From positions 1 to 44,768 of the forward strand of contig JAUSEO010000026.1 in the NCBI GenBank assembly GCA_030651515.1: a stretch of 44,768 bases of DNA, given 5' to 3'. A model generated the notes under the pieces. The model was not told the DNA's origin. It saw only the letters and a list, made by a program, of their open reading frames with translations, and made no database searches. The translations under genes were made by a program, and so were the position numbers. This DNA is from an archaeon (lineage in GTDB: Archaea > Iainarchaeota > Iainarchaeia > Iainarchaeales > GW2011-AR10). Positions 4,394 to 43,266 of the stretch are shown piece by piece (position 1 is the first letter of the stretch; every line of letters starts with the position of its first letter).

Positions 4394-4415
4394 TATGACT
4401 AACAAAAATAGGAGT

Positions 4416-4473: not shown

Positions 4474-4474
4474 T

Positions 4475-6254: not shown

Positions 6255-6261
6255 TTAATGA

Positions 6262-7280: not shown

Positions 7281-7296
7281 ACGCGGGGTTTGGTTT

Positions 7297-10586: not shown

Positions 10587-10624
10587 TCACCTAAATGCTA
10601 AAGATGATAGTAACGGAGATTTCA

Positions 10625-11293: not shown

Positions 11294-11302
11294 AGTGAAA
11301 CA

Positions 11303-12073
11303 ATGAATCTAAAACTTTTAGTAACCGGCATGATTTTTTTAATAGTAGTAATATCCATTGCCGTGGGAATCAGCACAAAAAATAATATACAACCCAATAC
11401 TAGTGGCGCCAAATTAAATGGCTACCCAGCAGAAAATTGGGAAAAAATAGAAATTTTCAGAGCGCCGAGCGGCGAGATATTCATTTCAAGTTTTCCTCTT
11501 ATTTCAAATGAAAACGAAATTCAGGCATTCAAACAAAAGTCAATAGAGAGACTAAATGGCCTACAAGAAGGGGTTGTTTACCACAATGTTGTCGTAACAT
11601 TTTCAAAAGAACTGAATGAAGAAGAAGTAAATGAACTCTCTGAAATTATCAACATTCTGAGATTAAAATACATAGCTGACCCAGAAGGAACAGGAACAAT
11701 TGGTTTTCCACTAGAGGAAGAAGAAAGAGAATATCTGGCCAATCTGGAACAGGCAATCAAAACTAAAATGTCTGACTGTTCTAATTTAGATAAAAAGCTT
11801 TCACCATTAGAAACAAGTGAAAGAGAAATCAAGAAAAAGGAACTGCTAGAACAGTGTGATGCATACAAAGACTTCAAACTCGTTAAGGGGTTTGTTGCGG
11901 CAGATGTAGTAGATTCAAAAGAAAATCTTCTTGAACTAGCAAACCATCAAAACGTGTTATTTGTTGATGTAGGCCCAATCGAACTATTAGAAAGGTACCC
12001 AAATGCATTCATTAAACCAATAAAAGATGGGTGGTATGAATATTCAAAAATAGTAAATAATGAAATTTCTTAA
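11303..12073 (+). CDS. N-terminally membrane-anchored protein, unknown family (P2)
   Basis: Single N-terminal TM (LLVTGMIFLIVVISIAVGI). Paralog at 31219-31974 shares VTFSKELNEEE, PEGTG and VDVGP-ELL blocks. Confidence 0.7.
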   Translation: MNLKLLVTGMIFLIVVISIAVGISTKNNIQPNTSGAKLNGYPAENWEKIEIFRAPSGEIFISSFPLISNENEIQAFKQKSIERLNGLQEGVVYHNVVVTFSKELNEEEVNELSEIINILRLKYIADPEGTGTIGFPLEEEEREYLANLEQAIKTKMSDCSNLDKKLSPLETSEREIKKKELLEQCDAYKDFKLVKGFVAADVVDSKENLLELANHQNVLFVDVGPIELLERYPNAFIKPIKDGWYEYSKIVNNEIS

Positions 12074-12117
12074 AGAAAAGACTGATTTTTTATTAACAAA
12101 CTAACAAAAGGTTATTG

Positions 12118-13110
12118 ATGCCTCAAAAATATGTTGATTCAAGCAAATTTATACAACAAATTGTCTTTTTTTTAAAGCCCGACAAGTGGAAATTAGCACT
12201 ATTTTCATTGGCAATTTTGCTCGGGATAATTACAAGTATGATAAGGCATGAAAACGTATTAGCCTCCTCCATGATTTTTTTTCTGCCGATTTTTATTTTT
12301 ATATTCATATCGCCGGTCTCAGCTATCATTGGAGTGATTGACCCCAAACTCAAAATCTTTGGAAATTTTTACGGGCTTATTGAAGCTAATATCATTTTTT
12401 CCATCGCCTTGTTGTTTATTTATTTCTATATTCTGGCTTGTTTTATTGTTTTTTCGTTTAAGTATTTAAGAAAAAAGTTTGATATAAAATTAATTGCCAT
12501 TTTATTGTTTCTTTTTTTTGTCTTGTCAATTTCATTTCTTGGATGGTTAGACTTGATTATCAGCCCAACTTTGGAAACAACAGTACTTTTAATAAAAAAA
12601 GTCGGAGTTTCTTTATTTTCTTCCTACATTTTTACCCTTATAGTTTTAAGTGGCCTAATTTTGCTGAAAAAATTTTTAACAATGCCATTAATTAAAAAAC
12701 TAGCAATAGTTTTATCAATTATTTTGGTTTATTTAGCAATTTTCTACCCTGCTTTCCAAGGAAACATTATTCCAAAAACATTGGACATAGAAGAACGCAA
12801 CCTTGCACTTTACGCCATAGAAGAGACAGAAAGCCAGCTTGACATACAAGGCGACGGGATACTACAGTATGAAGTTGTTAGCTTCAAAAGACCGGTAGAA
12901 CACATCGTAGTACACAACAATTTTCCAGGGAGTAACAATGTATGGCAGGAGACATGCGATGTGGAAATAAAAATGAAAACCAGGACATTTTTTGGACAGC
13001 CGTTCTATGAAATAATAGTTTACCTCAATTCCACAGAAAACTTCAATTACAATTACTGTGACTTGGAAATACCAAACGAGTGCGACTTTGACCCAAACTG
13101 CAAACCCTGA
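12118..13110 (+). CDS. Polytopic membrane protein with a Cys-containing C-terminal domain, unknown family (P3)
   Basis: About 7 hydrophobic segments, then a roughly 110-aa soluble tail (..ETCDVEIKMK..NYCDLEIPNECDFDPNCKP). A+T-rich. Confidence 0.6.
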   Translation: MPQKYVDSSKFIQQIVFFLKPDKWKLALFSLAILLGIITSMIRHENVLASSMIFFLPIFIFIFISPVSAIIGVIDPKLKIFGNFYGLIEANIIFSIALLFIYFYILACFIVFSFKYLRKKFDIKLIAILLFLFFVLSISFLGWLDLIISPTLETTVLLIKKVGVSLFSSYIFTLIVLSGLILLKKFLTMPLIKKLAIVLSIILVYLAIFYPAFQGNIIPKTLDIEERNLALYAIEETESQLDIQGDGILQYEVVSFKRPVEHIVVHNNFPGSNNVWQETCDVEIKMKTRTFFGQPFYEIIVYLNSTENFNYNYCDLEIPNECDFDPNCKP

Positions 13111-18623: not shown

Positions 18624-18636
18624 AAGATTGAAAAAA

Positions 18637-19344
18637 ATGCTGTTGTTTGCGGTTTTTCTTTCAGTGGTTGTTTTTGCACAGTCACAGGAAAAAGTCCTGA
18701 TTGTTTCAATAATGTTCAACGAGGGGCAGATGTCGTTTGGCAATGCCTTTACACAAAAAGGAGTGTATGCCTCGGAGATGAACGATGGCACTGTAAGTGG
18801 AAAAATTTATTCAGTCGAGGGAGATGAAGTGTTTTCCTTCAAATTTGAGCCAAATAATAAGATTGTTGTGGAAGATTTAGGAGTCATAGAAGAAGGGAGT
18901 TTCAAGGAAGTCCTTGTTTTGCCATATTATGAGAATGCTGAAAAAATCGTTTTCTTCAACGAAGAGACTGGGCAAGAGATAGTTGTTCCAATAGCGTTTT
19001 TGTCAAAACTCTGCGGAAACAAAACCTGTGATGCTTCAGAAGCATTTGGAAACTGCCCCTCCGACTGTCCAAGCGGGGGGCAGGACAGTTATTGTGACAG
19101 GGAAAATGACGGTGTTTGTGACCCCGACTGCGACCCCAAGTTGTTTGACTCTGACTGCCAACAACCAAGCGATGCAGGGCTTTCAGAACAAAAAGTTGAT
19201 GAAATCGTAAGGCAAAAAACCGGGCAAAAGGAAAGCAAAGTGGAAAGTTTTCCAATTGAGATGCTTGGCATTGGAATTGCCGCGATTATGGTTTTAATAG
19301 TTTTAGGCTTCATTTTTTTAAGGAAAAAAACAGGCAATGAGTGA
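18637..19344 (+). CDS. Secreted protein with a Cys/Asp-rich segment and a C-terminal TM anchor
   Basis: Signal MLLFAVFLSVVVFAQS. CGNKTCDASEAFGNCPSDCPSGGQDSYCDRENDGVCDPDCDP. C-terminal GIGIAAIMVLIVLGFIFLRKK. Confidence 0.65.
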   Translation: MLLFAVFLSVVVFAQSQEKVLIVSIMFNEGQMSFGNAFTQKGVYASEMNDGTVSGKIYSVEGDEVFSFKFEPNNKIVVEDLGVIEEGSFKEVLVLPYYENAEKIVFFNEETGQEIVVPIAFLSKLCGNKTCDASEAFGNCPSDCPSGGQDSYCDRENDGVCDPDCDPKLFDSDCQQPSDAGLSEQKVDEIVRQKTGQKESKVESFPIEMLGIGIAAIMVLIVLGFIFLRKKTGNE

Positions 19345-28882: not shown

Positions 28883-29496
28883 AGACAATTGTTGTCTCAG
28901 CAAAAGATTTTTCAAAAGCCATTACAAGTACAGTTTCATGCCTCAAAAACGGCGGGATTGCAGTTATTCCAACCGAGACAAGCTATGGCCTGGCGGCGCT
29001 TGCATCAGACAAAAAAGCTGTCAGAAAAATCCACCGTGCAAAAAAACAGCCTTCAACAAAAGCTGTTTCAATCATTGTGCCAAGCCTTAAAGTGGCGGAA
29101 AAATACGGCGTGCTTGGAAAAGACGCGAAAAGGCTTGTGGAAAAGTTCATGCCCGGGCCGTTGACCCTGGTCGTGCCTGCAAAAAAAACTGCAGCCCACC
29201 TGGGTGGAAAAAGCATTGCGTTTCGCATTTCCTCAAACAAGTTTGCCCATGCACTGTGCACAAAACTCGGAGACGCAATCACTGCCACGTCTGCAAACAT
29301 CCATGGGGAGCCGGACATTTACTCTGCAAAAAAAGCGCGGCAGGTTTTTGGTGAAAAGGCAGCTGTCATTGTTGACGCCGGGAAACTGCCAAAGCGCAGG
29401 CCAAGCACGGTTTATGACACCACCACAAGCAGGGTACTACGAATTGGAAAGATTTCCGAAAAGCAAATAAAAAATGCTCTGCAAAAGATAAAGTAA
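28879..29496 (+). CDS. sua5: L-threonylcarbamoyladenylate synthase (Sua5/TsaC, YrdC domain only)
   Basis: GGIAVIPTETSYGLAALASD...KKQPSTKAVSIIV...PGPLTLVV...SANIHGEP. Confidence 0.85.
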   Translation: MKTIVVSAKDFSKAITSTVSCLKNGGIAVIPTETSYGLAALASDKKAVRKIHRAKKQPSTKAVSIIVPSLKVAEKYGVLGKDAKRLVEKFMPGPLTLVVPAKKTAAHLGGKSIAFRISSNKFAHALCTKLGDAITATSANIHGEPDIYSAKKARQVFGEKAAVIVDAGKLPKRRPSTVYDTTTSRVLRIGKISEKQIKNALQKIK

Positions 29497-29526
29497 AATC
29501 AACCCAATAGTTGAATACAATTCAAC

Positions 29527-30536
29527 TGTAATGTCAACCTTTTAACGTAACATTCTTCTTTTTTGAAGTCTTTTTGTTGTGCAAGGAGGGTGTAGTGGGT
29601 TTATCCGATTTTTTTGAGTGGGGGAAGAAGTCCCCCACTACTTTAGATTTTATATGAGACTATTGTCAGAAGAACGTCGTTTTTTGATAAAAGCTTTACG
29701 GAAAAAAGTTCCAGTGAACATGATAGCTAAAGTTTTTGGAGTGAACCGTAAAACCGTCTGGTATTGGGGTAAACAAGATGCGAGGACTGGTTTAATTGAT
29801 AAACCGAGGAATAAAGCCAGAAAAATCACTCTTCAGGTTGAATTGACTATTTTGTTTTTGAGAGTCATGTTCAAGTGGGGAACTGCAAGAATTCAACAGG
29901 GTCTTTTTGATTTACCGGATTTCATGAAAAAGGAAATGGAAAATCCGGTACAACGTGTAAAATTGTCCAGACAGTCAATTAATGAGGTTTTACGAAAACA
30001 TCACTTAAATGGTTTTACCAGAGAACAAAAGGCTTGGAAATTTTTCAGGGCTTCCCAACCTAATGAATTATGGCAGTTAGACCTAAAAGGGCCGTTTACA
30101 GTTCAAGGACAAAAATGGTACTTCCTAATTTGTATAGACGATTACAGCCGTTACATTGTTACCGCTGACCAGTTTGACCACTGTCCCAACATTCAGGAAA
30201 TACTGGGTTCCATTCAACCATCCATTAACCAGTTTCACCCAAAAAATATTCTGACGGACAATAACCCATTCAAACAGGACTGGGCAGAAAAATTAAAACA
30301 ACAAGGAATAAACGCTTTATTCGCACACCCTTATTATCCTCAAGACAAGGGAAAAGTCGAACGTTGCATCCGAAACCTTGCAGAAGAATTCGTCAACCTC
30401 TTACTCAAATTTCCTCATTGGTTAAACGGAAAACTCAAACAATGGGTAGAATGGTACAATAACCACCGTTACCACCGAGGAATTAAAGGATATCCTGTAA
30501 CCCTGTTTTATGGGGAGTTAAAGACTTGACTTTACA
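29527..30536 (+). mobile_element. Insertion sequence (rve/DDE, IS481-like), 1010 bp
   Basis: IRL is TGTAATGTCAACCTTTTAAC (29527-29546). The reverse complement of IRR is TGTAAAGTCAAGTCTTTAAC (30517-30536). They match at 16 of 20 positions with TG..CA termini. A 5-bp direct repeat TCAAC flanks the element (29522-29526 and 30537-30541). Single transposase ORF. Confidence 0.8.
29654..30529 (+). CDS. DDE transposase/integrase (rve domain) with N-terminal HTH
   Basis: HTH is NMIAKVFGVNRKTVWYW. Catalytic residues are WQLDLKG (D), ILTDNNPF (D) and PQDKGKVERC (E). The stop lies inside IRR. Confidence 0.85.
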   Translation: MRLLSEERRFLIKALRKKVPVNMIAKVFGVNRKTVWYWGKQDARTGLIDKPRNKARKITLQVELTILFLRVMFKWGTARIQQGLFDLPDFMKKEMENPVQRVKLSRQSINEVLRKHHLNGFTREQKAWKFFRASQPNELWQLDLKGPFTVQGQKWYFLICIDDYSRYIVTADQFDHCPNIQEILGSIQPSINQFHPKNILTDNNPFKQDWAEKLKQQGINALFAHPYYPQDKGKVERCIRNLAEEFVNLLLKFPHWLNGKLKQWVEWYNNHRYHRGIKGYPVTLFYGELKT

Positions 30537-30587
30537 TCAACCAAACGTATTTAAACCACAAAGGAAGAAAATACTAAATGGCCTTAG

Positions 30588-31211
30588 ATGAAAAAATTGC
30601 TTGCAAAAGTTGCGCTTGTTTTAGGGGTTCTATTTATTTCTGGCACAGCCTTTGGCGCTAAAGCTTGTACTGAACATGAAGAAGGGACTCACGACTGGGT
30701 GCCGGATTGGGATGGAAATGTGAGTTTTATATATCGTGAGGATTCAACTATTACTCATCAAACTTTTTCTTGGGTTCAAAACAATTTGGATAATTTTATG
30801 AGCAAAAATGCATATTACCAATATGAACTCAAGCGACCAGATAAAGAAGAGTACTGGGACTATTGGAAACTGATAATCCCGTTTGTTTGTATACGCAAGG
30901 GCTATTTTACTAATCTCCCAAACCCGATTGAAGACCAATGGTCGGAAGAAACGGACCTGTGGTTTATTTTAGGATGCGGAAGACCTTCATGGGGGTTTGA
31001 CGAAGAATTTGAAATTAAAAGCCTAGACCCAAATGCACTGACAGCTGACGTTACATATTTTGTAGATGCAAACTTTTGGCGCGATACTGAAGACAGGGGA
31101 AAACCAATGACTTTGCAGTCTGAATCCGAATTTTGTGGCATTAATTATTTTTGTAATCGTGGCCAGGTATTCCACTGGTGTGAAATGACAGAGCAGAGGA
31201 TAACTGGGTGA
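30588..31211 (+). CDS. Secreted Cys-rich protein, paralog of P1 (P1')
   Basis: Signal MKKLLAKVALVLGVLFISGTAFGA. Shares C-x-HEEGTH-WVP, YWDYWK, YFTNLPNPIED-WSEE, EEFEIKSLD, FWRD-EDRGK, SESE-CGI and FHWC-MT with 10625-11293. Confidence 0.7.
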   Translation: MKKLLAKVALVLGVLFISGTAFGAKACTEHEEGTHDWVPDWDGNVSFIYREDSTITHQTFSWVQNNLDNFMSKNAYYQYELKRPDKEEYWDYWKLIIPFVCIRKGYFTNLPNPIEDQWSEETDLWFILGCGRPSWGFDEEFEIKSLDPNALTADVTYFVDANFWRDTEDRGKPMTLQSESEFCGINYFCNRGQVFHWCEMTEQRITG

Positions 31212-31218
31212 AACAAAA

Positions 31219-31974
31219 ATGGATCGAAAAATATTGTTGGTCGGAGTCATTTTAAGTATTTTAGTTTCAGTTGGATTTGCTGTTAGCATAGCAACAAAAG
31301 GTGATTTGAGTTTGTTAGGACTAAAAGTACCTGACAAGGAAGAACTCCAGGTAGTCAATGCATTCAAAGAAAATGGCGAAACCATTGAAATAGTTCAGAC
31401 TCCAACTGACCAAATAGCAATTGCAAGCAGGGCAATGCCTTCCACTGAAAGTGAATTACTTGCATTTAAGCAAAAGTCAGTGGAGCGGTTAAATTTGCTT
31501 TCAACTGGAGTCACTTACCAGGCTATAGTTACCTTTTCAAAAGAATTAAACGAAGAAGAACTCAAAGAACTTTCTAAAATAGTATCTATTTATAGGGTAA
31601 AATTTGTTTCTTTCCCCGAAGGCACTGGTGCCGTAGAGTTTCCAGTACCAGAAACATATTTTGAAGAGCTTGAACAAAGAATCAATTCCATGTTTTCTGA
31701 CAAAGGGGATATTTGTTCCAAGGAAGTTTTAGCCACAAAAGGGGAAGCAGCAAAAAAGCAATGTGATTCTTATAAGAATTATAAAGCTCTCAAAGGCTTT
31801 ATTGCAGCCGACACAATAGTTGGTTCCAAAGAACAGTTAATGAATCTTGCAAGAACCGAAAATGTTTTAGTAGTTGACGTTGGGCCTGTCGAACTATTAC
31901 AACAATATCCCGGCGCATTTATTATGCCAACAAAAGACATTTGGTATGAGTACTCAAAAATAACCAATTCATAA
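31219..31974 (+). CDS. N-terminally anchored protein, paralog of P2 (P2')
   Basis: Shares AFKQKS-ERLN, VTFSKELNEEE, PEGTG, LKGF-AAD, NVL-VDVGP-ELL and WYEYSKI with 11303-12073. Confidence 0.7.
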   Translation: MDRKILLVGVILSILVSVGFAVSIATKGDLSLLGLKVPDKEELQVVNAFKENGETIEIVQTPTDQIAIASRAMPSTESELLAFKQKSVERLNLLSTGVTYQAIVTFSKELNEEELKELSKIVSIYRVKFVSFPEGTGAVEFPVPETYFEELEQRINSMFSDKGDICSKEVLATKGEAAKKQCDSYKNYKALKGFIAADTIVGSKEQLMNLARTENVLVVDVGPVELLQQYPGAFIMPTKDIWYEYSKITNS

Positions 31975-32001
31975 AAGCCTTAAGGCACCCTAAAATCTCT
32001 A

Positions 32002-32991
32002 ATGAAGAAAAAAATCGTCTGCTTAGGCTTGGAGTCAACAGCCCATACCTTTGGGGCGGGAATAGTCGACGAAAAGTGCAATGTCTTAGCCAACGAGAAA
32101 AGCGCGTTTAGGACAGAGAAGGGCGGGATAAAGCCAAGCGAGGCTTTTGACCACCACTGCAAAAACGCGATTGGCGTAATCCGGGGGGCTTTTGAGAAAA
32201 GCGGGCTTTCAATGAAAGACATTGAGGTTGTAGCCTTCTCCCAGGGGCCGGGGCTTGGCCCGTGTTTGCGGACTTCTGCAGTGATAGCGCGCACGCTTGC
32301 ACTTGCCCACAACAAGCCTCTTGTAGGGGTAAACCATGCCCTGGCGCACATTGAAATGGCCAAGAAAAAATGCTCCGCAAAAGACCCTGTCGTGGTCTAC
32401 ACAAGCGGCGGAAACACGCAGATACTCGTGCTTGAGGAAAAGCGGTACCGCGTGCTTGGCGAGACCCTTGACATAGGCGTTGGGAACCTGCTTGACAGTT
32501 TTGGGAGAAGCCTTGGCCTTGGTTTTCCCGCAGGGCCAAAGATTGACGAAATGTATTTTGAGTCAGACAATTACGTTGAACTCCCTTACTCGGTGAAGGG
32601 AATGGACCTGCAGTTCACTGGGCTTTTGACTTCAGCAGAAAAAAAAATCGGGACTGTGCCGGAAAAAGATTTGTCTTACTCACTCATGCACACGGCATTC
32701 TGCATGATTGCAGAAGTCACTGAGCGCGCTCTTGCATTCACTGGCAAAAAAGAAGTTCTTCTCACTGGTGGAGTGGCCTGTTCAAAAGCACTGCAGAAAG
32801 TGCTTGGCGAAATGTGTGAAGCACGCAAAGCAAAGCTGCTTGTCTGCCCGCCTGCATACGCGGTTGACAACGGCGCAATGATTGCCTGGACCGGGTTGAT
32901 TGCCTTCCGCGCGGGAAAGACGACAAAAATTTCTGAATCAAAAACTATTCAGCGTTTTCGGCCGGACAGCGTGGAAATTGCGTGGGGTTAA
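32002..32991 (+). CDS. kae1: tRNA N6-adenosine threonylcarbamoyltransferase Kae1
   Basis: CLGLESTAHTFGAGIV...FSQGPGLGPCLRTSAVIARTLA...VGVNHALAHIE...TGGVACSKAL. Confidence 0.9.
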   Translation: MKKKIVCLGLESTAHTFGAGIVDEKCNVLANEKSAFRTEKGGIKPSEAFDHHCKNAIGVIRGAFEKSGLSMKDIEVVAFSQGPGLGPCLRTSAVIARTLALAHNKPLVGVNHALAHIEMAKKKCSAKDPVVVYTSGGNTQILVLEEKRYRVLGETLDIGVGNLLDSFGRSLGLGFPAGPKIDEMYFESDNYVELPYSVKGMDLQFTGLLTSAEKKIGTVPEKDLSYSLMHTAFCMIAEVTERALAFTGKKEVLLTGGVACSKALQKVLGEMCEARKAKLLVCPPAYAVDNGAMIAWTGLIAFRAGKTTKISESKTIQRFRPDSVEIAWG

Positions 32992-33312
32992 TCAGCGTTT
33001 GAATTTTTTTATTACTTCTTTTTCAAGTGCAGCCAGGGATTTTTCAACCGCGGTCAAAATGTTCCATTCATCGTGAGTTGCATCAAAAGAATGGCCGGGG
33101 CAGACAAGGCGGGAGTGAATGGAGTATTTTCTCCTTTCCCCTTCAATTTCATGCTCTTTGACGTGGATTGAAAGCCTCGTGTCAGGGTGCTTGATTATTC
33201 TGGCAAGTTTTCTGAAAGTATTGAATGCCTTTGTTTCAGCCTTTGCCTTTTCAAAACTGTCCGTATCGTGAAAACCGATAAATTCAACGTTTAACTGTTC
33301 AGGCTCCATCAT
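32992..33312 (-). CDS. HPF/RaiA (S30AE)-like ribosome-associated protein candidate
   Basis: 106 aa. The pattern LNVEFIGFHDTDSF..KAF.TF.KLARI...LSIHVKEH....YSIHSRLVCPGHSFDATHDEWNILTAVEKSLAALEKEVIKKFKR is colinear with bacterial HPF (beta-alpha-beta3-alpha). Judged by eye only. Confidence 0.45.
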   Translation of the reverse strand: MMEPEQLNVEFIGFHDTDSFEKAKAETKAFNTFRKLARIIKHPDTRLSIHVKEHEIEGERRKYSIHSRLVCPGHSFDATHDEWNILTAVEKSLAALEKEVIKKFKR

Positions 33313-33403
33313 AGTTCAACCACAAATTTAATTTTGACAAACGTGGTTAAAAATTGTTTTCCTCCAGAAAAAAAGCAACATTCTACATAAAAAAATTTAT
33401 TTT

Positions 33404-33691
33404 TCATTTTTTTGCAGAGCGAAAATCAGAAGTGTACGAGTAGAGCTTTACGACGATTGCCAAGGCGCATAGGAACAGGAAAAGTTTTAACTGCCAGGGA
33501 AGTTTTTCTGCCCCCGGAAAAGACAGGCTTGGGTCAAAGAGAAAAAGAACCGACACCAAAATGAAGGCGGTTAAAACCAATTCAACTACTACAAGCCCAA
33601 CGTGGCGCTTGTCTTTGCGCGCTTGGCGGACTTTTTCCTTTATGCCCTCGTTTGCCCGGCGGGTTATTTCACGGATTTTTGCTGTTGGCAT
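33404..33691 (-). CDS. Small membrane protein (2 TM), unknown
   Basis: Basic N-terminus, then LVVVELVLTAFILVSVLFLF and LFLFLCALAIVVKLY. Confidence 0.45.
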   Translation of the reverse strand: MPTAKIREITRRANEGIKEKVRQARKDKRHVGLVVVELVLTAFILVSVLFLFDPSLSFPGAEKLPWQLKLFLFLCALAIVVKLYSYTSDFRSAKK

Positions 33692-33706
33692 GGCAAAAGA
33701 AAAGAC

Positions 33707-34627
33707 TCATTTGTTGTTTAAATTAGTTTCATTCTTTAGTTTATCTAAAACATCGTCAGAAGACATTATTTCAATTGCCCCGAATTCTTGAATAGCCTGT
33801 TTAATTCCTTCGTTTGGCAAAATATGCAATGCTAATGACGGCACAAAAATTGGAACTTTTTGTTTATATGCAGTTTTTGTTTGAACCATAGCACCACCCA
33901 TAGCGCCACTTGCAATATTTATGATTCCATTAGATATGCCTGACGTGATTCTGTTCCTTTGTACGAACGAATAATTTGCACCACCAAAATTTGGCGAATA
34001 TTCGCTAACTAGTAGCCCTCTTTCCTTGATTGTATTTAATAATTTTTTATTTTCTTCAGGGTATAGATTAAAAAAACCCGTTCCCATAATCGAAATAGTT
34101 TTCCCACCAGTTTGCTGTAAGACTGCATTGTGTGCAGCTGTATCGATTCCAAGTGCTCCGCCACTAACAATAACTACCCCCTTTTTTGCTAAATTGCTTG
34201 CAATAACCGATGTCAAATCTAGTGCTTTTTCCGAGGCAGTACGACTTCCAACAATAGCAATTTTATTTTCACTATATAATAGGGATTTGTCACCCCAGAG
34301 GAATAAAAAGATTGGAGGTAAAGGGATGTTTTTCAACTGGCGAGGATAATCTTTATCGAATAAGGTAAGTATTTCGATTTTGTTTTTTTTGCAGTCATGT
34401 ATAGTTTTTAGATAATTTTCGTCAGATGCACTTTTGAGTTTTTCAATCTCTTTTACCATTAAATTAGTAATACCTTTAGTTTTTTCTAAATCTAAATTAG
34501 CAGCATTAAATACTCCGTCAATAGTTTCAAATCTTTGAACTAAATATAAGATTCGTGATGGTCCAAGACCATGAACATTATTTAATTTCATCAATTTTAC
34601 GAGTTGAGAATCAGTAAGTTCAGTCAT
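33707..34627 (-). CDS. dprA: DprA/Smf-like (SLOG/Rossmann) DNA-processing protein
   Basis: IAIVGSRTASEKALD...VIVSGGALGIDTAAHNAVL...ISIMGTGFFNLYPEEN...SEYSP...FVQRNRITSGIS..INIASGAMGGAMVQ. The N-terminus is HhH-like. Confidence 0.8.
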   Translation of the reverse strand: MTELTDSQLVKLMKLNNVHGLGPSRILYLVQRFETIDGVFNAANLDLEKTKGITNLMVKEIEKLKSASDENYLKTIHDCKKNKIEILTLFDKDYPRQLKNIPLPPIFLFLWGDKSLLYSENKIAIVGSRTASEKALDLTSVIASNLAKKGVVIVSGGALGIDTAAHNAVLQQTGGKTISIMGTGFFNLYPEENKKLLNTIKERGLLVSEYSPNFGGANYSFVQRNRITSGISNGIINIASGAMGGAMVQTKTAYKQKVPIFVPSLALHILPNEGIKQAIQEFGAIEIMSSDDVLDKLKNETNLNNK

Positions 34628-35235
34628 TATTTCCCACCCATTTCATTGATGCCTAAACATAATGCTGTAACACTACACGTAGATTTGCTTTTTTTTAACA
34701 ATTTGGCGCATTCGAGTAAATGTATCCCTGTCGTTTTAGTATCATCCAACAGCAAAATGTTTGTTTCTTGCGAATCTAACTTGCGAGTCAGAACCATAGT
34801 ATCTTTGATGCTAGTATATCTATCATATAAACTGGCAGTGTATGAAAATTTTTTAGTCTCTTTTATTCGCTTAATTATGTTTTCATTCTTAAAAGAATTT
34901 TTCTTTGCGAGTTTGACTGCAAGCGGTAATAATGTAGGTGAATATTCATCTATTTTTGAAGAAGGCAATACGATTAAAAGGTCGATTTCTTGAAAACGAT
35001 TGTGTGAAATTATAGCTTGTAATGCGGGTAAAAAATAGTCGGAGAGGTCTTTTGTTTTTGATTCTATAATTTTTTCGGAATACTCATCACTTTTTGTATT
35101 TTTTTTAAAATATTTTCTGGGTGCATGAACTGGCACTTTAAGACCTGGATATAGCCGATACCAGTTAGCAGAGTCTGTTTCCCAGGGATATTTTCTTTGC
35201 GTACCAGTCAAATTAACTTCAATAAAACCCCCCAT
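34627..35235 (-). CDS. Phosphoribosyltransferase-like protein (ComF/ComFC-like, no zinc finger)
   Basis: PRPP-loop-like NILLLDDTKTTGIHLLECAKLL. Its stop TAA overlaps the dprA ATG by 1 nt (TAATG). Confidence 0.65.
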   Translation of the reverse strand: MGGFIEVNLTGTQRKYPWETDSANWYRLYPGLKVPVHAPRKYFKKNTKSDEYSEKIIESKTKDLSDYFLPALQAIISHNRFQEIDLLIVLPSSKIDEYSPTLLPLAVKLAKKNSFKNENIIKRIKETKKFSYTASLYDRYTSIKDTMVLTRKLDSQETNILLLDDTKTTGIHLLECAKLLKKSKSTCSVTALCLGINEMGGK

Positions 35236-35251
35236 CAAATCCCCTTTTTAG

Positions 35252-35302
35252 CTATTATAATAACGTTTTCTTATTATAATAACGTTTTCTTATTATAATA
35301 TC
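35252..35302. repeat. Tandem direct repeat, 2.6 copies of the 19-bp unit TTATTATAATAACGTTTTC, in the promoter region of the PRTase-dprA operon
   Basis: Read directly. Each unit carries a TATA-like TTATTATAATAA. The last unit ends about 20 nt upstream of the ATG at 35235 (- strand). Confidence 0.85.
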
Positions 35303-35386
35303 TTTACTAGAGACCTTACTGCCGGTGCCAATTTTGTGTAAAAGGTAGCCTTTATTTACGCAACATGCTCTAACCTTATCCAAAAT

Positions 35387-35824
35387 TTATTCTTTTTGTT
35401 CTCCTTCAAACCCAAGTTCGCGGTCAAGTTCCTGGGCAGTTTTCTTCATTTTCTGGAAAATTCGCTCGATGTCTTCCTCGATTTCCTCTATAGTGCGGAG
35501 CATGCTTGAACTGCGCGGGAAATAAGACCTGCCCTGCCTTACAATGAGGCCGGAGCGCTGGAGGTTGTTTAAGTGGTTGATTATTGAGCCGCGGCTCATT
35601 TCAAGCCTCTTTGCCAGAAAAGTTGAAGTTAACGGTTTTTGTGCTTCAGAACCCTTTACAACTTCTTTAAAGACAGAGGAAGCGGTTTTCCCGCGGGCTA
35701 TTGGCTCGAAAAAGCCAAAAGACTGGCAAATCCAGTCCAATTCCGCAAAAGGGTCATGCGAAAAAGGCTTCTCCACCCTTTTAATCACGATTTTAAAGGA
35801 TGCCCGCCTAATGTTTTCCGGCAT
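35387..35824 (-). CDS. Winged-helix transcriptional regulator, divergent from grpE-dnaK-dnaJ
   Basis: LTSTFLAKRLEMSRGSIINHLNNLQRSGLIVRQGRSYF is an HTH/wing. A TTG at 35848 is an alternative start. Confidence 0.6.
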   Translation of the reverse strand: MPENIRRASFKIVIKRVEKPFSHDPFAELDWICQSFGFFEPIARGKTASSVFKEVVKGSEAQKPLTSTFLAKRLEMSRGSIINHLNNLQRSGLIVRQGRSYFPRSSSMLRTIEEIEEDIERIFQKMKKTAQELDRELGFEGEQKE

Positions 35825-35911
35825 AAAAGAAAGAGCCCCCCAAAACAAATAAAAGAGTTTTGTTTAAAAAAGTTTGTAATTGATTAAATATTTTAGTCAA
35901 AAGTGTTTTTG

Positions 35912-36478
35912 ATGCATATTCACAAAAAAGACGAAAAAATGCCTCCAGAACACCAAAAAGATGGCAAAGAGGCCTTGGAGGCACGGCTTGCAGAGCTTGA
36001 AAAGGGGCTTGCGGAGCAGGTGGAAAAGGCAAACGAGTTCAAAGAGATTGCCCAGCGCGTGCAGGCAGAGTTTGAAAACTTTTCCAAACGCACGGAAAAA
36101 GAAAAGGCCGAGCACAAAAAGATTGCAGGGGCAGGCATCATTTTCGAACTTTTGGCAGCCCTTGACAGTTTTGACAGCGCGATTGAAGCCATGAAAAAGC
36201 ACGGGAAAACGGAAAAAGATGGGGGAATGCATGGACTTGTTCTTTTGAAAAAGCAGTTATTTGGAGTTCTTGAAAGGCATGGGCTTAAGGAAATTCCCGC
36301 AATTGGGGAAAAATTTGACCCGCACTTGCATGAGTGTTTTCTGAGCGTGAATGAAAAAGGAAAGGAAGATGAAATAGTTTTGGGGGAAATCCAGAAAGGT
36401 TACACGCTTAACTCGCTTGTGCTTCGGCCAAGCAAAGTGAAAATAAACAAGTTGCACGAAGAAAAAAAAGATGAGTAA
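35912..36478 (+). CDS. grpE: Nucleotide exchange factor GrpE
   Basis: Coiled N-terminus, then RVQAEFENFSKRTEKEK...LLAALDSFD...GEKFDPHLHE...GYTLNSLVLRPSKV. Confidence 0.9.
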   Translation: MHIHKKDEKMPPEHQKDGKEALEARLAELEKGLAEQVEKANEFKEIAQRVQAEFENFSKRTEKEKAEHKKIAGAGIIFELLAALDSFDSAIEAMKKHGKTEKDGGMHGLVLLKKQLFGVLERHGLKEIPAIGEKFDPHLHECFLSVNEKGKEDEIVLGEIQKGYTLNSLVLRPSKVKINKLHEEKKDE

Positions 36479-36511
36479 AAAAATCTGCATTTAATTTGGA
36501 GGTAATGAAAA

Positions 36512-38383
36512 ATGGGCAAAGTCATCGGAGTGGATTTAGGCACATCTAACAGTGCATGCGCTGTTTTGGAGGGTGGAAAGCCGCGCATTGTTCCAAGCGC
36601 GGAAGGCGCATCAGTTTACGGAAAAAGTTTTCCATCGGTTATAGCTTTTACAAAGGACGGCCAGGTTTTAGTGGGTGAACCCGCAAAGAGGCAGGCCGTG
36701 AGCAACCCTGACCGCACATTCACTGCTTTCAAGAGAAAAATGGGGACTGACTACAAATACAAAGTTGGTGGAAAAGAATACACGCCGCAACAGTTGTCCG
36801 CATTTGTCCTGCAGAAAATAAAAAAGGACGCGGAAGAGTTCCTTGGCGAAACAGTGGAAAAAGCTGTTATCACTGTCCCTGCTTACTTTGACGACAATCA
36901 AAGGCAGGCGACAAAAGACGCAGGGGCAATCGCCGGACTGGAAGTAATTAGAATAATTAATGAGCCGACATCTGCAGCACTTTCATACGGCTTGGACAAG
37001 CATGGCAAGGAACAAAAAGTCCTCGTGTTTGACTTTGGCGGCGGGACGCTGGATGTCACAATCATGGAGTTCAGCCATGGCTTGTTTGAAGTAAAAAGCA
37101 CAAGCGGCGACACGCAATTAGGCGGGACCGACATGGACAGCATACTTGTTGATTACGTAGTTGCAGAGTTCAAGAAAACGGATGGAGTGGACATTAAAAA
37201 AGATTCAATGGCTTTGCAGAGGCTGTATGAGGCGTGCGAGCGCGCAAAAATCGAGCTTTCAACGGTCATTGAAACCGACATCAATTTGCCATACATTACT
37301 GTTGGGCCTGATAATTCCCCAAAGCACTTGCATTTGAAGCTTTCACGCTCAAAGCTTGAACAATTGCTTGAGCCAATAATCAAGAGGTGCGAAAAGCCGG
37401 TTGAACAGGCTTTGGCTGATGCAAAGCTCACGCCTGCAGAGATTTCAAGGATAATCCTTGTCGGCGGCCCGACCAGAATGCCGATTGTGCAGAAGTTTGT
37501 TGAAAAAATAGTCGGCACAAAAGTCGAGCGCGGGGTTGACCCGATGGAGTGCGTTGCACAAGGCGCAGCAATCCAGGCAGGAGTGTTGTCTGGTGAAGTC
37601 AAGGACGTGCTTTTGCTTGACGTAACGCCGCTTACTCTGGGAATTGAAACCCTTGGCGGGGTGAGGACTCAGCTCATTGAAAGAAACACCACTATTCCCA
37701 CGAGGAAAAGCCAGGTTTTTTCCACGGCTGCAGAGAACCAGCCTGCAGTGGACATTCATGTCCTGCAGGGAGAGCGGCCAATGGCGCAGGACAACAAGTC
37801 ACTTGGACGGTTCCAATTGGCTGGCATTCCCCCTGCACCGCGCGGAGTGCCACAAGTGGAAGTCACGTTTGACATTGATGCAAATGGGATAGTCCACGTC
37901 ACGGCAAAGGATTTGGGCACTGGGAAGTCACAGAGCATCAAGATAATTGCAAGCCAGAAGCTTGACGAGAAAGAAATCGAGCGGATGAAAAAAGAGTCAG
38001 AACAGTTTGCGCAAGCCGATAGGAAAAGGAAAGAGGATGCTGAAATCGTGAACAACGCCGACACGCTTGCATACTCTGCGGAAAAAATGCTTGAAGAACT
38101 AAAGGAAAAAGTCCCGGCACAGACAGCAGAAAAAATACGCGGCCTTGCAGTGGAAATCAGGGAACTCGTGGCAGCCTCCACAAAGGACACTGCAAAAATA
38201 AAGTCAAAAATGGACGAGCTTAACAAAAAGATGCAGGAGTTTTCTTCAGAACTCTATAAGGGCGCTGGTGCGCATGGGCAGCAACAGGGCGGCGGAGCAA
38301 AGCAGGAAAGCGGCGGCTCACAGCAAGGCAGTGACGACAACGTGGTTGACGCGGATTTTGAAGCAAGCGATGAAAAGAAATAA
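36512..38383 (+). CDS. dnaK: Molecular chaperone DnaK (Hsp70)
   Basis: [13 protein letters not shown]...[20 protein letters not shown]...[11 protein letters not shown]...[10 protein letters not shown]. Confidence 0.95.
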
Positions 38384-38415
38384 GTTTTGCGGGTTAAAAG
38401 GCTCATTGATGATTG

Positions 38416-39543
38416 ATGGCTAAAGATTATTATTCAAACCTTGGCGTGAGCAAAAACGCGTCAGCAGAAGAGATTAAAGAGGCGTACAAACGCTTAGCCA
38501 AGCAATACCACCCTGATGTTTCCAAGGAAAAGGACGCGGAAGAAAAATTCAAGGCAATAAGCGAAGCATACAAGGTGCTAAGCGACCCGCAAAAGCGCCA
38601 GAACTATGACCAGTTCGGTGACGCGGCTGAAAGGTTTTCCGGTTTCTCCGGCTTTGAGGGTTTCACGCACTCGGAATTTGATTTCTCCGACCTGTTTGGG
38701 GACAACGGCTTTGGGGATGCATTCCGGGACCTTTTCGGACAGGGTTTCAGCGGGGCACAGCAAAGGCAAAGGACAGGGTCCGCACGCGGGCAGGACATTG
38801 GAGTAAACATGTCTGTTTCATTTGAAGAAGCCGTGCATGGGGCAACAAAAGAGTTCATGCTTGAACATGAAACTGTCTGCACAAAATGCATGGGCGAGCG
38901 GACAGATGAAAAAGATGGCAAACAAAAATGCACTACCTGCCACGGAAGCGGGGTGCAGCAGTCCACGCAGAGGACTTTTTTTGGCGTGATTTCCACCAGC
39001 ACGACTTGCGGAAAATGCAGGGGGGAAGGAACGATAATCACAAAACCGTGCCAAAAATGCAGTGGGCGCGGAAAAGAAAAAACACGCGAAAAAGTATCCG
39101 TAAAGATTCCAGCAGGGATAGACACAGGGTACAGGCTTCGTTTAACCGGGCATGGAAATGCCGGTAAAAACGGCGGGCAGACAGGCGACCTTTACGTTCT
39201 TGTGTTTGTCGAGCCGCACAAGGAATTCAAGCGCGACCACGACGACATTTTTATGGAAGCCCCGCTGTCGTTTTCACAGGCAACTCTTGGGGGAAAAATA
39301 GAAGTGCAGACAATCAATGGCACTGCAAAAGTCACTGTCCCGCCCGGCACACAGACTGGAGTGATTTTTCGGCTCAGGGAGGAAGGCGTCAAAAACTTCC
39401 GCACAGGAAAAACCGGTGACCAGTACGTGAAAGTCATACTCAGGACACCTGAAAAACTGTCAAAAAAACAAAAAGAACTCTTCGATGAACTGGGCAAAGA
39501 AGAGGGAAAAAAAGGCAAAAACAAGGGATTTTTGGGGTTTTAA
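38416..39543 (+). CDS. dnaJ: Molecular chaperone DnaJ
   Basis: J domain DYYSNLGVSKNASAEEIKEAYKRLAKQYHPD, a G/F region, and four CxxCxGxG zinc motifs. Confidence 0.95.
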   Translation: MAKDYYSNLGVSKNASAEEIKEAYKRLAKQYHPDVSKEKDAEEKFKAISEAYKVLSDPQKRQNYDQFGDAAERFSGFSGFEGFTHSEFDFSDLFGDNGFGDAFRDLFGQGFSGAQQRQRTGSARGQDIGVNMSVSFEEAVHGATKEFMLEHETVCTKCMGERTDEKDGKQKCTTCHGSGVQQSTQRTFFGVISTSTTCGKCRGEGTIITKPCQKCSGRGKEKTREKVSVKIPAGIDTGYRLRLTGHGNAGKNGGQTGDLYVLVFVEPHKEFKRDHDDIFMEAPLSFSQATLGGKIEVQTINGTAKVTVPPGTQTGVIFRLREEGVKNFRTGKTGDQYVKVILRTPEKLSKKQKELFDELGKEEGKKGKNKGFLGF

Positions 39544-39566
39544 GCCCCCAAGCAAAAGTGTGAAGT

Positions 39567-40247
39567 ATGATTTTAGAAGCAAAAACATTCAAAGAGGATT
39601 GCCAAAATGTAAAAACTTTAGCAGATACTTGTTTGTCAATTAAAAAAAACCTGAATTACCCCGTGCAAGATGTAAGAAATCAAACCTTGAACAATATAGA
39701 AAAAATTTCTGACTCTTCTCTGATGATACTTAACCTACTTGATTCTTGGGCAATTGAAAGTCCTAACCAAAAATATGTAATTAGCCGACTAATAGGACTT
39801 GAAGAACCTGATAAGTCTAATGAAGTTGTTAATATGATTAGCAAAATGACAAAACTTGGATTTGTTTTGTTGTCCCAATTTCAAATTGAAAATTGTACAA
39901 GAACACTTGCCAAAAATTTAGGAGCGCATAGCGGACAAAATAAATTTTACAGTGAAGCAAAAAGTCTAATTAATGCACTTAATCTAACGCAAGACAAATT
40001 GGAAATTCTTAATACTACTGCACTTATTAGAAATACATTGCACAATAATAGAGTCCACTATTCTTCGCATGGAACTAAAACAACAGTAATAAAGGAGGCA
40101 AGATATGAGTTCATTATCGGAGAGCATATTAATTGCGCCACTTGGAACCATATAACCCATGCTTTACAACACTCAGTTTATGTTCTAAAAGAAATTTTTC
40201 AGCACCTGCAGTTTAAATATTTTCCTTATTTTACTTATTTAAGGTGA
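39567..40247 (+). CDS. Hypothetical protein (A+T-rich, helical), adjacent to the mazEF-like pair
   Basis: No recognised family. A weak Rx4-6H-like RVHYSSH is present. Confidence 0.5.
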   Translation: MILEAKTFKEDCQNVKTLADTCLSIKKNLNYPVQDVRNQTLNNIEKISDSSLMILNLLDSWAIESPNQKYVISRLIGLEEPDKSNEVVNMISKMTKLGFVLLSQFQIENCTRTLAKNLGAHSGQNKFYSEAKSLINALNLTQDKLEILNTTALIRNTLHNNRVHYSSHGTKTTVIKEARYEFIIGEHINCATWNHITHALQHSVYVLKEIFQHLQFKYFPYFTYLR

Positions 40248-40261
40248 TTTTTGTGTCTAAC

Positions 40262-40456
40262 ATGACCATGGCTATTGAAGATAAAATGCACAAGAAGATG
40301 AGGGCACACCCTGAAGTCAAGTGGACTGAAGTTGCAAGAAAGGCTTTTGAAAAAAAACTGGCAGAACTAGAAACAGTAAAGGACCCCTGGAGGCAATACG
40401 CTTACAAAAGATGGGCCGAAGAAGGAGAGGAAGCTGACGAACTCTTTGAATTTTGA
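40262..40456 (+). CDS. Putative antitoxin (MazE/RHH-like small protein)
   Basis: About 64 aa, acidic C-terminus. The stop overlaps the start of the PemK/MazF-like gene. Confidence 0.5.
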   Translation: MTMAIEDKMHKKMRAHPEVKWTEVARKAFEKKLAELETVKDPWRQYAYKRWAEEGEEADELFEF

Positions 40457-40787
40457 ACCCGGAGACATAGTCGTAGCTGATTTGTTGTTTGCAGAACAAA
40501 TTGGAATAAAAAGAAGGCCTGCACTCGTAATAAGCAATTCAAATTACAACAAAAACTCTGAAGACGTAATCTTGCTGAAAATAACTTCAAGTGCACCCAA
40601 AACAAAGTATGACGTTTTGCTTTCAAACAAAGACCTTAAAAAAGGCAACCTAAAAACAGAAAGCAGCGTAATGGCAGACAATCCTGTAACTACATACAAA
40701 AAAATGATTGAAGCAAAGATTGGAAAAATTTCAGAACAAAAACTAAAAGAAGTAAAGCAGAAATTAAAAGAGCTTTACGAATTATAA
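40446..40787 (+). CDS. mazF: PemK/MazF-family toxin endoribonuclease
   Basis: FEPGDIVVADLLFAEQIGIKRRPALVISNSNYN...VILLKITSS fits the MazF/PemK pattern. TTG start. Confidence 0.7.
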   Translation: MNFEPGDIVVADLLFAEQIGIKRRPALVISNSNYNKNSEDVILLKITSSAPKTKYDVLLSNKDLKKGNLKTESSVMADNPVTTYKKMIEAKIGKISEQKLKEVKQKLKELYEL

Positions 40788-40860
40788 AAACGAGCCTCTA
40801 CATAACGATTGGTTGTTTGATAAGGTTTTTGTGCCTTTGGCTTGAAAAAATTGATTAGAT

Positions 40861-43266
40861 ATGGAAAACAAGTTTCTGGAAAGCGAGAAAAAGTGGCAGG
40901 AATTCTGGGAAAAAAACAATGTTTACCGTTTTGACGAAAGCTCGAAAAAACCGGTTTTCCCGATTGACACCCCGCCGCCTACTGTGAGCGGGCGGATGCA
41001 CCTGGGGCACGCGTTTTCCTACACGCAGGCAGACGCCGTGGCACGGTTTAAGAGGATGCGGGGCTTTAACGTTTTCTACCCGTTTGGGTTTGACGACAAC
41101 GGCCTTGCAACGGAAAGAATGGTTGAAAAGAACCGCAAAATCCAGGCCAAAAATTTTTCACGAAAAGAATTTGTACAGATTTGCCTGGATGAAACAAGGG
41201 GCGCGGAAAAACTCCTGGAAAGCGATTTCCGCGCGGTCGGGCTGAGCGTGGACTGGTCAAGGCTTTACCGGACTATTTCCCAGGAGTCCCAAAGGACTGC
41301 GCAATTGTCTTTCATCGAAATTTTTGAGTCAGGCAGGGCTTACCGCAAAGAGGCGCCGACAATGTGGTGCCCAAAGTGCGAGACTGCAATCGCCCAGGCT
41401 GAGCTTGAGGACGAGGAAAAAAACTCGAAACTTTTTTTTGTCTCACTGGACATCGAAGGCAGTGGGCAAATAACCATTGCAACCACGCGCCCGGAAATGA
41501 TGCCAGCGTGCGTGGGAATACACGTCAACCCGCAGGACAAAAGGTACAAAGGTTTGGTTGGAAAAAAAGTTTCACTGCCGTTTTTTGAAAGAAAAGTTCC
41601 AATCATCGCAAACCCGGACGTCAAAATGGATTTTGGAACCGGCGCTGTTTACCACTGCACTTTTGGGGGGCAGCAGGACGTTGAGTGGGCCCTTGCATTC
41701 AATGCCCCGTTAATTGAAATAATTGGAAAGAATGGAAGGCTGAACCAGAAGGCAGGGCAGTTCTCTGGGCTCAATGTCTTGGATGCACGCAAAAAAATTG
41801 TCGAGGAACTGCAAAAGATGTCGCGCATACAAAAAACAGAGGACATCGTGAACGTGACAAACGTGCATGAAAGATGCAAGACCCCAATAGAGATTCTGAC
41901 TTCACGGCAGTGGTTTGTAAAGTACCTGGATTTGAAAAGCAAGTTCATTGAACAGGCGCGGAAAATAAACTGGGCGCCACTCCACATGCGCTCACGCATG
42001 GAAAACTGGGTAAACGGCCTAAAATGGGACTGGAATATTTCAAGGCAGCGCTACTTTGGCGTGGCTTTTCCAGCGTGGTACTGCAAAAAGTGCGGGGAGA
42101 CAATCCTTGCGGAGAGGAAAAACCTGCCGGTTGACCCGCTCAAAGACTTGCCTCCGAAAAAATGCAGGTGCGGCTCAAACGAGTTTGAAGGGGAAAAGGA
42201 CGTGTTTGACACGTGGTTCACGTCTTCATTGACTCCGCAGATTGCTTTGCGTTGGAGAGAGGATGAAAAATTCTTCAAAAAAAATTTTCCCATGGGGCTT
42301 AGGGTACAGGCGCATGACATAATCAACTTGTGGGCTTTTTACACGATTGTAAAAGCATTCCTGCATGAGAAAAACGTGCCGTGGAAAAACATCATGATTT
42401 CTGGCCACGCACTTGACCCGGCGGGGCGGAAAATGTCAAAGAGCCTTGGGAACACCATTGAGCCTTTGGCAATGGTTGAAAAGTACTCGGCTGACATGCT
42501 GCGCTACTGGGCGCTGAGTGCAACGCTTGGGGATGACTTGGCGTTCCAGGAAAAAGATTTGGTTGCCGGGAAAAAGTTTTTGACAAAGCTTTCAAACGCT
42601 GCGCGGTTCGTGGCTGAATCCGGCAAGGAATTTAGCCTTTCACAGGATTTGGGAAAAGCAAAATTGAGGACAAATGACAAGTGGATTCTTTCACGGTTAA
42701 ATGAAACAATGGCCGATGCCACGAACAGCCTTGAAGAGTTCGAGTTTTCAAAGGCGCTTGCCGCAGTGAGGAATTTTTTCTGGCTCGAGTTTGCAGACCA
42801 TTACCTTGAACAGGCGAAGTACAGGGTGTATGGTTCGGATAAAGAATCCAAAACGGCCGCCCTGCTTGTCTTGAACACGGTCATGTTTGACGTGCTGAAA
42901 CTCTTGTCCCCGTTCATCCCGCATACAACTGAAGAAATTGCACAAACACATTTTCCAGGAATGCTTTCTGCAAAAAGCATTCACCTTGAAAATTGGCCGG
43001 TGGAAAGAAAGGCAGTGATGGATGAATTGGCAAAGAAAAACGGTGAACTTCTTGCATTAGTCGTGTCAGCGGTGAGGAAAGAAAAAACAGCCAAACAGGT
43101 TGCAATGAATAAAGAAGTAGCCAAGATAACCATTTTTGGGCCGTTAGAGCTTGAAAGCGTGCTTGAAGAAGTAAAGCAGACAATGAACGCAAAAGAGGTT
43201 GTGCTGGCAAAAGGAAAAGGCAGCATAGAGGTGGCAGAAGGCGTGTCACTGGAAATCGGGTTTTAG
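40861..43266 (+). CDS. valS: Valyl-tRNA synthetase
   Basis: IDTPPPTVSGRMHLGHAFSY (HIGH region), KMSKSLGN, 801 aa. Confidence 0.9.
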   Translation: MENKFLESEKKWQEFWEKNNVYRFDESSKKPVFPIDTPPPTVSGRMHLGHAFSYTQADAVARFKRMRGFNVFYPFGFDDNGLATERMVEKNRKIQAKNFSRKEFVQICLDETRGAEKLLESDFRAVGLSVDWSRLYRTISQESQRTAQLSFIEIFESGRAYRKEAPTMWCPKCETAIAQAELEDEEKNSKLFFVSLDIEGSGQITIATTRPEMMPACVGIHVNPQDKRYKGLVGKKVSLPFFERKVPIIANPDVKMDFGTGAVYHCTFGGQQDVEWALAFNAPLIEIIGKNGRLNQKAGQFSGLNVLDARKKIVEELQKMSRIQKTEDIVNVTNVHERCKTPIEILTSRQWFVKYLDLKSKFIEQARKINWAPLHMRSRMENWVNGLKWDWNISRQRYFGVAFPAWYCKKCGETILAERKNLPVDPLKDLPPKKCRCGSNEFEGEKDVFDTWFTSSLTPQIALRWREDEKFFKKNFPMGLRVQAHDIINLWAFYTIVKAFLHEKNVPWKNIMISGHALDPAGRKMSKSLGNTIEPLAMVEKYSADMLRYWALSATLGDDLAFQEKDLVAGKKFLTKLSNAARFVAESGKEFSLSQDLGKAKLRTNDKWILSRLNETMADATNSLEEFEFSKALAAVRNFFWLEFADHYLEQAKYRVYGSDKESKTAALLVLNTVMFDVLKLLSPFIPHTTEEIAQTHFPGMLSAKSIHLENWPVERKAVMDELAKKNGELLALVVSAVRKEKTAKQVAMNKEVAKITIFGPLELESVLEEVKQTMNAKEVVLAKGKGSIEVAEGVSLEIGF

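Follow-up and report, generated by a model that had tools for sequence, protein, structure and literature searches.

An archaeal cassette pairing a phosphoribosyltransferase-like gene with a DprA-like gene is a probable minimal toxin-antitoxin-type defence module

What brings a phosphoribosyltransferase (PRTase)-like gene and a DprA-like gene together in an A+T-rich islet of an archaeal genome? The question is raised by contig JAUSEO010000026.1 of an Iainarchaeales archaeon (assembly GCA_030651515.1), the 44,768 nucleotides of which form the window analysed here. A first-pass annotation, made from the sequence without database searches, had offered two readings of the pair, either as a competence remnant akin to ComFC and DprA, or as a DprA-like and PRTase conflict system. 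The second reading is the better supported, by matches to PADLOC defence models, by a fold match to the toxin ShosT and by a pairing that is kept across genomes. The two-gene antiphage system mentioned in that annotation does exist, namely ShosTA, formerly 'DprA-PPRT' in DefenseFinder, which is carried by P2-like phages. We consider it very probable that the cassette is a toxin-antitoxin (TA)-type module of some sort and, by analogy with characterised systems, probable that it is a minimal archaeal two-gene defence module of the ShosTA/PsyrTA kind.

Both genes lie on the minus strand. The PRTase-like gene (34627..35235; 202 aa from ATG), which encodes the putative toxin, a stand-alone ShosT/PsyrT/ComF-like protein, is followed by the DprA-like gene (33707..34627; 306 aa), which encodes the putative antitoxin with a SAM-like N-domain and a Rossmann/SLOG domain. 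Base 34627 is common to the two genes (TAATG; 1-nt overlap), as was originally read. The longest form of the PRTase open reading frame (ORF) extends over 34627..35238 from a TTG start; the identical 202-aa product of NCBI begins at the ATG at 35235, and a putative Shine-Dalgarno-like AAAGGGG (35241..35247, minus strand) is situated 5 nt 5' of this codon. The binding loop for phosphoribosyl pyrophosphate (PRPP), previously noted as LLLDDTKTTG, can be read as ILLLDDTKTTG at residues 160-170 (34726..34758, minus strand), and includes D164 and D165. The pair has a G+C content of 0.334, against 0.443 in the remainder of the window, and the G+C profile runs at 0.31-0.37 over the pair versus 0.45-0.53 in kae1 and the dnaK operon. 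The claimed compositional distinctness from these neighbours thus holds, though the window has further low-G+C stretches (29400-31900 and 39400-41000). Archaeal markers among the window genes include arch_KAE1, aIF-2, aIF2-gamma, archaeal GluRS and SecY.

The PRTase-like protein has no match in a Pfam scan, PF00156 included. Sequence searches against the PDB, with the single sequence and with a four-sequence profile, retrieved only the PRPP loop of orotate phosphoribosyltransferase (OPRT) or PRPP synthetase and missed ShosT, so that in the PDB the protein is linked to ShosT and ComF through the fold search only. Its AlphaFold2 (AF2) model (predicted local distance difference test score (pLDDT) 86; predicted template-modelling score (pTM) 0.84) comprises a PRTase core preceded by approximately 50 residues forming a beta-hairpin. 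When compared against the PDB with Foldseek, the model is best matched by E. coli ShosT (8zvd; E 4.2e-6; query TM-score (TMq) 0.63; as well as 8zvc), followed by H. pylori ComF (7p0h; E 1.2e-5; TMq 0.53). Among the PADLOC models, the protein matches ShosT (PDLC03962; 2.7e-12; 45 bits) and PsyrT (1e-8), the latter over positions 546-680 of the 689 in the model, while across the family 51/51 members match PsyrT (best E 8.7e-17) and 50/51 match ShosT. The family is 180-230 aa in length; among its 51 members D164 and D165 are nearly invariant and G170 is invariant, and the ShosT equivalents of the two aspartates, D331/D332, are essential for toxicity (PMC11961720).

The intact PRPP loop, together with the weak matches to OPRT (4paw; E 5e-4 with the profile) and to ribose-phosphate diphosphokinase, might reflect a housekeeping or salvage PRTase lying by chance beside a DprA/SLOG nucleotide-binding protein. 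However, Apt, Hpt, OPRT and PurF reach a TMq of only 0.3-0.4 to the model. As the fold matches ShosT and ComF best and these enzymes weakly, the grouping with housekeeping PRTases, which the first-pass annotation had set against its own proposal, can be removed from consideration. With the lack of a PF00156 match, the rarity of the family, the foreign composition and mobility of the gene and its conserved coupling to dprA also standing against it, chance adjacency is extremely improbable. Proteins of 405-422 aa retrieved in the search of representative sequences were considered as a long form of ShosT and rejected, as P0113 has no PDB match to ShosT. These proteins (P0102, P0113, P0114 and P0124) form a separate family in which an unknown N-domain is followed by a PRTase domain and the C-terminus is rich in Cys (zinc-ribbon-like), and which is not E. 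coli ShosT by sequence.

The assignment of the second protein to DprA/Smf is confirmed by its match to PF02481 (1.3e-56). Its AF2 model (pLDDT 96) consists of a five-helix SAM-like N-domain, a Rossmann domain and a C-terminal helix, and Foldseek matches it to the DprA proteins of S. pneumoniae (TMq 0.80) and R. palustris (0.79) as well as to E. coli ShosA (8zva; 0.71). In PADLOC the protein matches the ShosA model PDLC03961 (1.1e-60; 204 bits) and PsyrA (1.7e-35). R139 and R234 of ShosA are required for ssDNA (single-stranded DNA) binding and antitoxicity; these residues align with R129 and R224 of the archaeal protein, both invariant in 42 sequences, and ShosA R261 aligns with K251. The DprA-domain phylogeny proposed in the first-pass annotation was run as a neighbour-joining tree (PsyrA not included), in which the PRTase-linked archaeal proteins and three of the next-best database matches form their own clade with 95% support. 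This clade stands apart from the winged-helix-bearing bacterial DprAs and from E. coli ShosA. In database searches the DprA-like partner falls into a tight clade of approximately 58 clusters (233-377 bits; 42-61% identity; 293-323 aa), which lack the PF17782 winged-helix domain, and every member with a name is archaeal (Woesearchaeota, Micrarchaeota, Marsarchaeota and 'archaeon'). Beyond it scores do not exceed 182 bits, with Firmicutes DprAs appearing from about 148 bits down.

A pair descended from ComFC and DprA, which would act with RadA on ssDNA during DNA uptake, recombination or repair and confer a competence-like function in a DPANN archaeon, finds some footing in these results. ComF is the second-best fold match, the family profile favours E. 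coli ComF/YhgH over E. coli ShosT, and competence DprA is the closest relative of the DprA-like protein, whose score on TIGR00732 is 180 bits (cutoff 191.15). Furthermore, the dprA gene of ultra-small genomes has been interpreted as a competence gene (PMC9938205). The PRTase-like protein, however, attains only 30.9 bits on TIGR00201 (comF; cutoff 233.55), and the ComF zinc finger, whose absence had been remarked upon at the outset, is indeed missing, with three Cys and no CxxC in the protein itself and CxxC in 0/51 members of the family. No comEC or pilus gene is found among the window ORFs scanned, in accordance with the initial reading. The pair sits in a cassette hotspot and is missing from a sister genome, and from genome to genome it is found in different places, surrounded by defence or mobile genes. 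A competence remnant, the alternative first put forward, is on this evidence improbable.

The pairing is conserved, where the first-pass annotation had left open that it might be confined to this genome: the PRTase family gene adjoins a DprA-like gene in 11/11 contexts examined. In nine of these (the window, L001-4, L005, L008, L011, L012, L014, L022 and the P0203 contig) the two genes run in the same direction and either overlap by 1-8 nt or are separated by 3 nt. They diverge in a metagenome-assembled genome (MAG) from the Marsarchaeota (L023) and converge in one from the Micrarchaeota (L024). The PRTases of the latter two loci (6150-7957 and 3958-5544, respectively) are longer, at 247 and 226 aa, and carry one N-terminal CxxC each. 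Genes neighbouring the pair include type I restriction-modification (R-M) systems, a type II methylase/HNH/Vsr cluster, AbiEi/AbiEii, MazE/PIN, VapBC, Fic and transposases, and the G+C content of the pair is below that of its surroundings in 8/10 loci. On a 183-kb contig (L012, 1-16543; JGI 3300050336), the pair is oppositely oriented and is flanked by blocks of genes for head-tail virus structural proteins (HK97-gp10-like, Phage_tube_2, Linocin_M18/capsid-like and minor capsid). There it resembles a moron in a provirus, in parallel to ShosTA in P2 hotspots.

The PRTase family is rare and patchy. A close-homologue search of 5.8 billion proteins yielded only three other clusters, and a profile search of 1.84 billion representatives yielded 138 clusters at E ≤ 1e-10, of which 38 reached E ≤ 1e-30. 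Clusters of the family have between one and six members. Locus searches with a four-sequence alignment and narrow patterns recovered one locus in GTDB, belonging to the Bathyarchaeia, and none in IMG/VR, which is a weak negative. The named members of the clade (Diapherotrites, Woesearchaeota, Micrarchaeota, Marsarchaeota and Bathyarchaeia) are all archaeal, and the PRTase and DprA modules apparently constitute a compact, archaea-restricted clade.

Comparison by blastn against a sister Diapherotrites MAG (L025; GCA_016198165.1), together with the G+C profile, delimits a variable cassette of 1,704 bp with 33% G+C (33681..35384), which contains the palindromes described below, the PRTase gene and the DprA-like gene. 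The sister genome is syntenic at the DNA level with 39539..35385 of the window (84% identity; dnaJ-dnaK-grpE and a helix-turn-helix (HTH) gene) and also aligns with 33680..32008 (79% identity; a 95-aa membrane gene, a 106-aa gene and kae1). As these alignments end at 35385 and 33680, the borders of the islet are exact. Positions 33681-35384 are unaligned, the slot in the sister genome being 921 bp in length and holding an 81-aa, antitoxin-like gene and a PIN-domain gene, which together are a VapBC-like TA pair. The slot behaves as a TA-cassette hotspot, and the cassette moves horizontally. Neither direct repeats nor att-like sites flank the cassette, and the window contains no tRNA gene. Two adjacent genes were considered as parts of the module and rejected as residents of the syntenic block, namely the HTH gene beside grpE (35387-35848), a candidate regulator that is conserved in Diapherotrites, and the downstream 95-aa membrane ORF (33404-33691). 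The homologues of the HTH gene are named Candidatus Diapherotrites, Iainarchaeum or GW2011_AR10, which places the host among the DPANN archaea.

The VapBC-like occupant of the same slot in the sister genome and the presence of another TA pair nearby (MazF and a 70-aa partner; 40244-40787) would suit a selfish addiction cassette without an antiviral role, which would employ the same chemistry, persist only since its loss is harmful, and spread between TA hotspots. Nevertheless, the characterised relatives ShosTA and PsyrTA protect against phages, and relatives of the present pair adjoin R-M and Abi genes or sit inside a provirus-like region. We therefore regard pure addiction as unlikely and retain the defence module as the preferred interpretation.

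The upstream repeat reported in the first-pass annotation is real. Three 12-bp A+T-rich palindromes with a 19-bp period (35252-35263, 35271-35282 and 35290-35301, within an operator- or promoter-like element at 35252..35305) precede the PRTase gene, and the palindrome TTATTATAATAA has three matches in the window versus 0.02 expected. Palindromes of 12-14 bp, likewise A+T-rich, in two copies (three in the window) and spaced by exactly 19 bp, occur in 8/10 loci, 31-66 nt 5' of the start codon of the module. Their sequences co-vary among the loci (TTATTATAATAA, CTATTATAATAG, CTAATATATTAG, GTAATATATTGC and ACATTATAATGT). Over the full 152 kb of sequence in these loci, a background scan revealed only three other palindrome pairs, none with 19-bp spacing. 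Weaker versions occur in L024, L012 and L022. In the convergent arrangement of L024, the palindromes are found 5' of the DprA-like gene and not of the PRTase gene, and in both L023 and L024 they remain with the DprA-like gene. A separate TATA-like box is present farther upstream in several loci. No comparable tandem palindromes are found in the region upstream of E. coli shosA, and a scan of the locus for bacterial promoters and terminators was uninformative, its models being bacterial and the host archaeal. The palindromes are probably an operator through which the module is autoregulated, presumably bound by a dimeric DNA-binding protein, as is typical of autoregulated TA modules, and they provide a testable regulatory element. 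The same element could be accommodated if the pair were a non-TA ComFC-like/DprA unit, passing incoming or damaged ssDNA to RadA, the DprA-like dimer of which also served as a sequence-specific palindrome repressor. We hold this to be very doubtful; if true, DPANN and other archaea would possess a mobile pathway akin to competence or recombination.

For the defence module, a mechanism may be modelled on the published logic of ShosTA (PMC11961720, PMC12961424). The 202-aa PRTase would bind PRPP through its conserved DD/TTG loop and, like ShosT, may perturb nucleotide metabolism, so that replication is stressed or DNA is damaged. Its translationally coupled partner, the DprA-like protein, presumably dimerises as do DprA and ShosA. 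It would offset the damage in an indirect way, through ssDNA binding and the recruitment of the recombination or repair machinery, presumably via RadA and not RecA. Viral infection would then unbalance the pair and lead to the arrest or death of the infected cell, the candidate triggers being a shutdown of host expression or a surge of ssDNA intermediates from the virus. Toxicity, neutralisation, the RadA partner and the viral trigger are thus what we infer by analogy with the bacterial systems.

Several results weigh against the attribution to the ShosTA/PsyrTA kind. As controls for the PADLOC models, Peduovirus P2_4C9 supplied ShosA and ShosT of the E. coli type, and E. coli K-12 supplied Smf, YhgH/ComF, Apt and Hpt. 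On the E. coli-type models, the genuine ShosA scores 765 bits (PDLC02997) and the genuine ShosT 973 bits (PDLC03012), while the archaeal DprA-like protein scores 90 bits on the former (Smf 73) and the archaeal PRTase has no match on the latter. PDLC03961, the ShosA model matched at 204 bits by the DprA-like protein, gives housekeeping E. coli Smf (L018:2437-3561) 195 bits (3.5e-58), and it is accordingly a generic DprA model. As Smf nearly equals the archaeal protein on this model, ShosTA calls hinge on the weak ShosT match and on adjacency. The ShosT model PDLC03962 is only moderately specific, with 180 bits for E. coli ShosT, 45 for the archaeal PRTase, 27 for ComF and 16 each for Apt and Hpt. 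Alignment of the PRTase family against E. coli ShosT with hhalign attains 71% probability over 49 columns covering the PRPP loop only, and the archaeal family profile scores E. coli ShosT at 13 bits and E. coli ComF/YhgH at 35 bits. By both sequence and fold, the DprA-like protein resembles the competence DprA of S. pneumoniae more closely than it does ShosA, and K200 and R206, through which ShosA contacts RecA, align with E191 and L197 in a sequence alignment anchored on a conserved YP motif. Two differences in architecture are of the same tenor: ShosT, at 424 aa, has an N-terminal pyrophosphatase-like domain (1-164) that the archaeal PRTase is without, and shosA precedes shosT in P2_4C9, whereas the PRTase gene comes first in the archaeal cassette. 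Finally, published work on archaeal members consists of a correlative study in haloarchaea.

The occurrence of such a pair in an archaeon, which was at first held to be notable, is less so, as DefenseFinder-type surveys place ShosTA among the most frequent archaeal systems and an archaeal match is therefore unsurprising. These surveys probably already lump the archaeal PRTase and DprA clade under 'ShosTA'. New here are the delineation of a minimal archaeal clade and of the ways in which it departs from E. coli ShosTA, the swap of the cassette and the architecture of the 19-bp-spaced palindromes. As the clade has neither the pyrophosphatase domain nor the RecA-contact residues, the published ShosTA mechanism is not simply transferable, and RadA is the obvious candidate partner of the archaeal antitoxin. 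Two cautions follow for annotation: dprA in DPANN genomes is no evidence of competence, and housekeeping DprA obtains nearly the same score as the archaeal protein on the broad PADLOC ShosA model.

Elsewhere in the window, a second variable low-G+C spot is located between sua5 and kae1 (29475-32007). Encoded there are an rve-family transposase (29618-30529) and two unknowns with signal-peptide-like N-termini (30588-31211 and 31219-31974), whereas the counterpart of the spot in the sister genome consists of just one 173-aa gene. Within 39540-40787, a low-G+C ORF of 226 aa (39567-40247) has no family match and is missing from the sister genome. It adjoins a MazF/PemK toxin gene (40446-40787) with an overlapping 70-aa antitoxin-like ORF (40244-40456), a pair which is kept in the sister genome as a ribbon-helix-helix (RHH) gene and PemK. 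Four long ORFs (15858-18623, 12115-13110, 10595-12073 and 18580-19344), one of which encodes 921 aa, have no Pfam or NCBIfam match. The same applies to the gene at 32992-33312, for which the earlier label 'HPF-like' could not be confirmed.

Among the known systems, ShosTA (E. coli APEC O1/KTE181 and P2-like prophages) is alike in that it combines a PRTase-fold toxin possessing a PRPP-binding DD loop with a DprA-fold, ssDNA-binding antitoxin, and in that it forms a two-gene module in mobile hotspots. It is unlike the archaeal cassette in that the RecA-contact residues of ShosA are unconserved in the archaeal protein, which does not group with ShosA. Recombination in the archaeal host is presumably of the RadA type and not of the RecA type. 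Given the absence of a pyrophosphatase domain, the opposite gene order and the distinct clade, the cassette is to be seen as of the ShosTA/PsyrTA kind and not as a ShosTA ortholog. PsyrTA (RqlHI) likewise joins a PRTase-containing toxin to a DprA-like antitoxin, but PsyrT is approximately 690 aa in length with a RecQ-like helicase region, and the archaeal PRTase aligns with its C-terminal ~135 residues only. The ComFC and DprA proteins of natural transformation have the same two folds, and the archaeal DprA-like protein matches S. pneumoniae DprA over its full length. The archaeal pair, by contrast, has no zinc finger and no DprA winged-helix C-domain (PF17782) and remains far under the ComF cutoff, while its genes are joined in a mobile operon that is patchy in distribution and missing from the sister genome. 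The Geobacillus/Thermus phage phiOH2 (L017, 2976-5442) also carries adjoining DprA and PRTase genes on a mobile element, directly upstream of its terminase genes, and among the outgroups its PRTase scores highest on the archaeal family profile (81 bits; profile positions 18-191). The phiOH2 proteins differ in their greater length (DprA 410 aa; PRTase 401 aa) and extra domains, in the order of their genes, with DprA preceding PRTase, and in their bacterial host.

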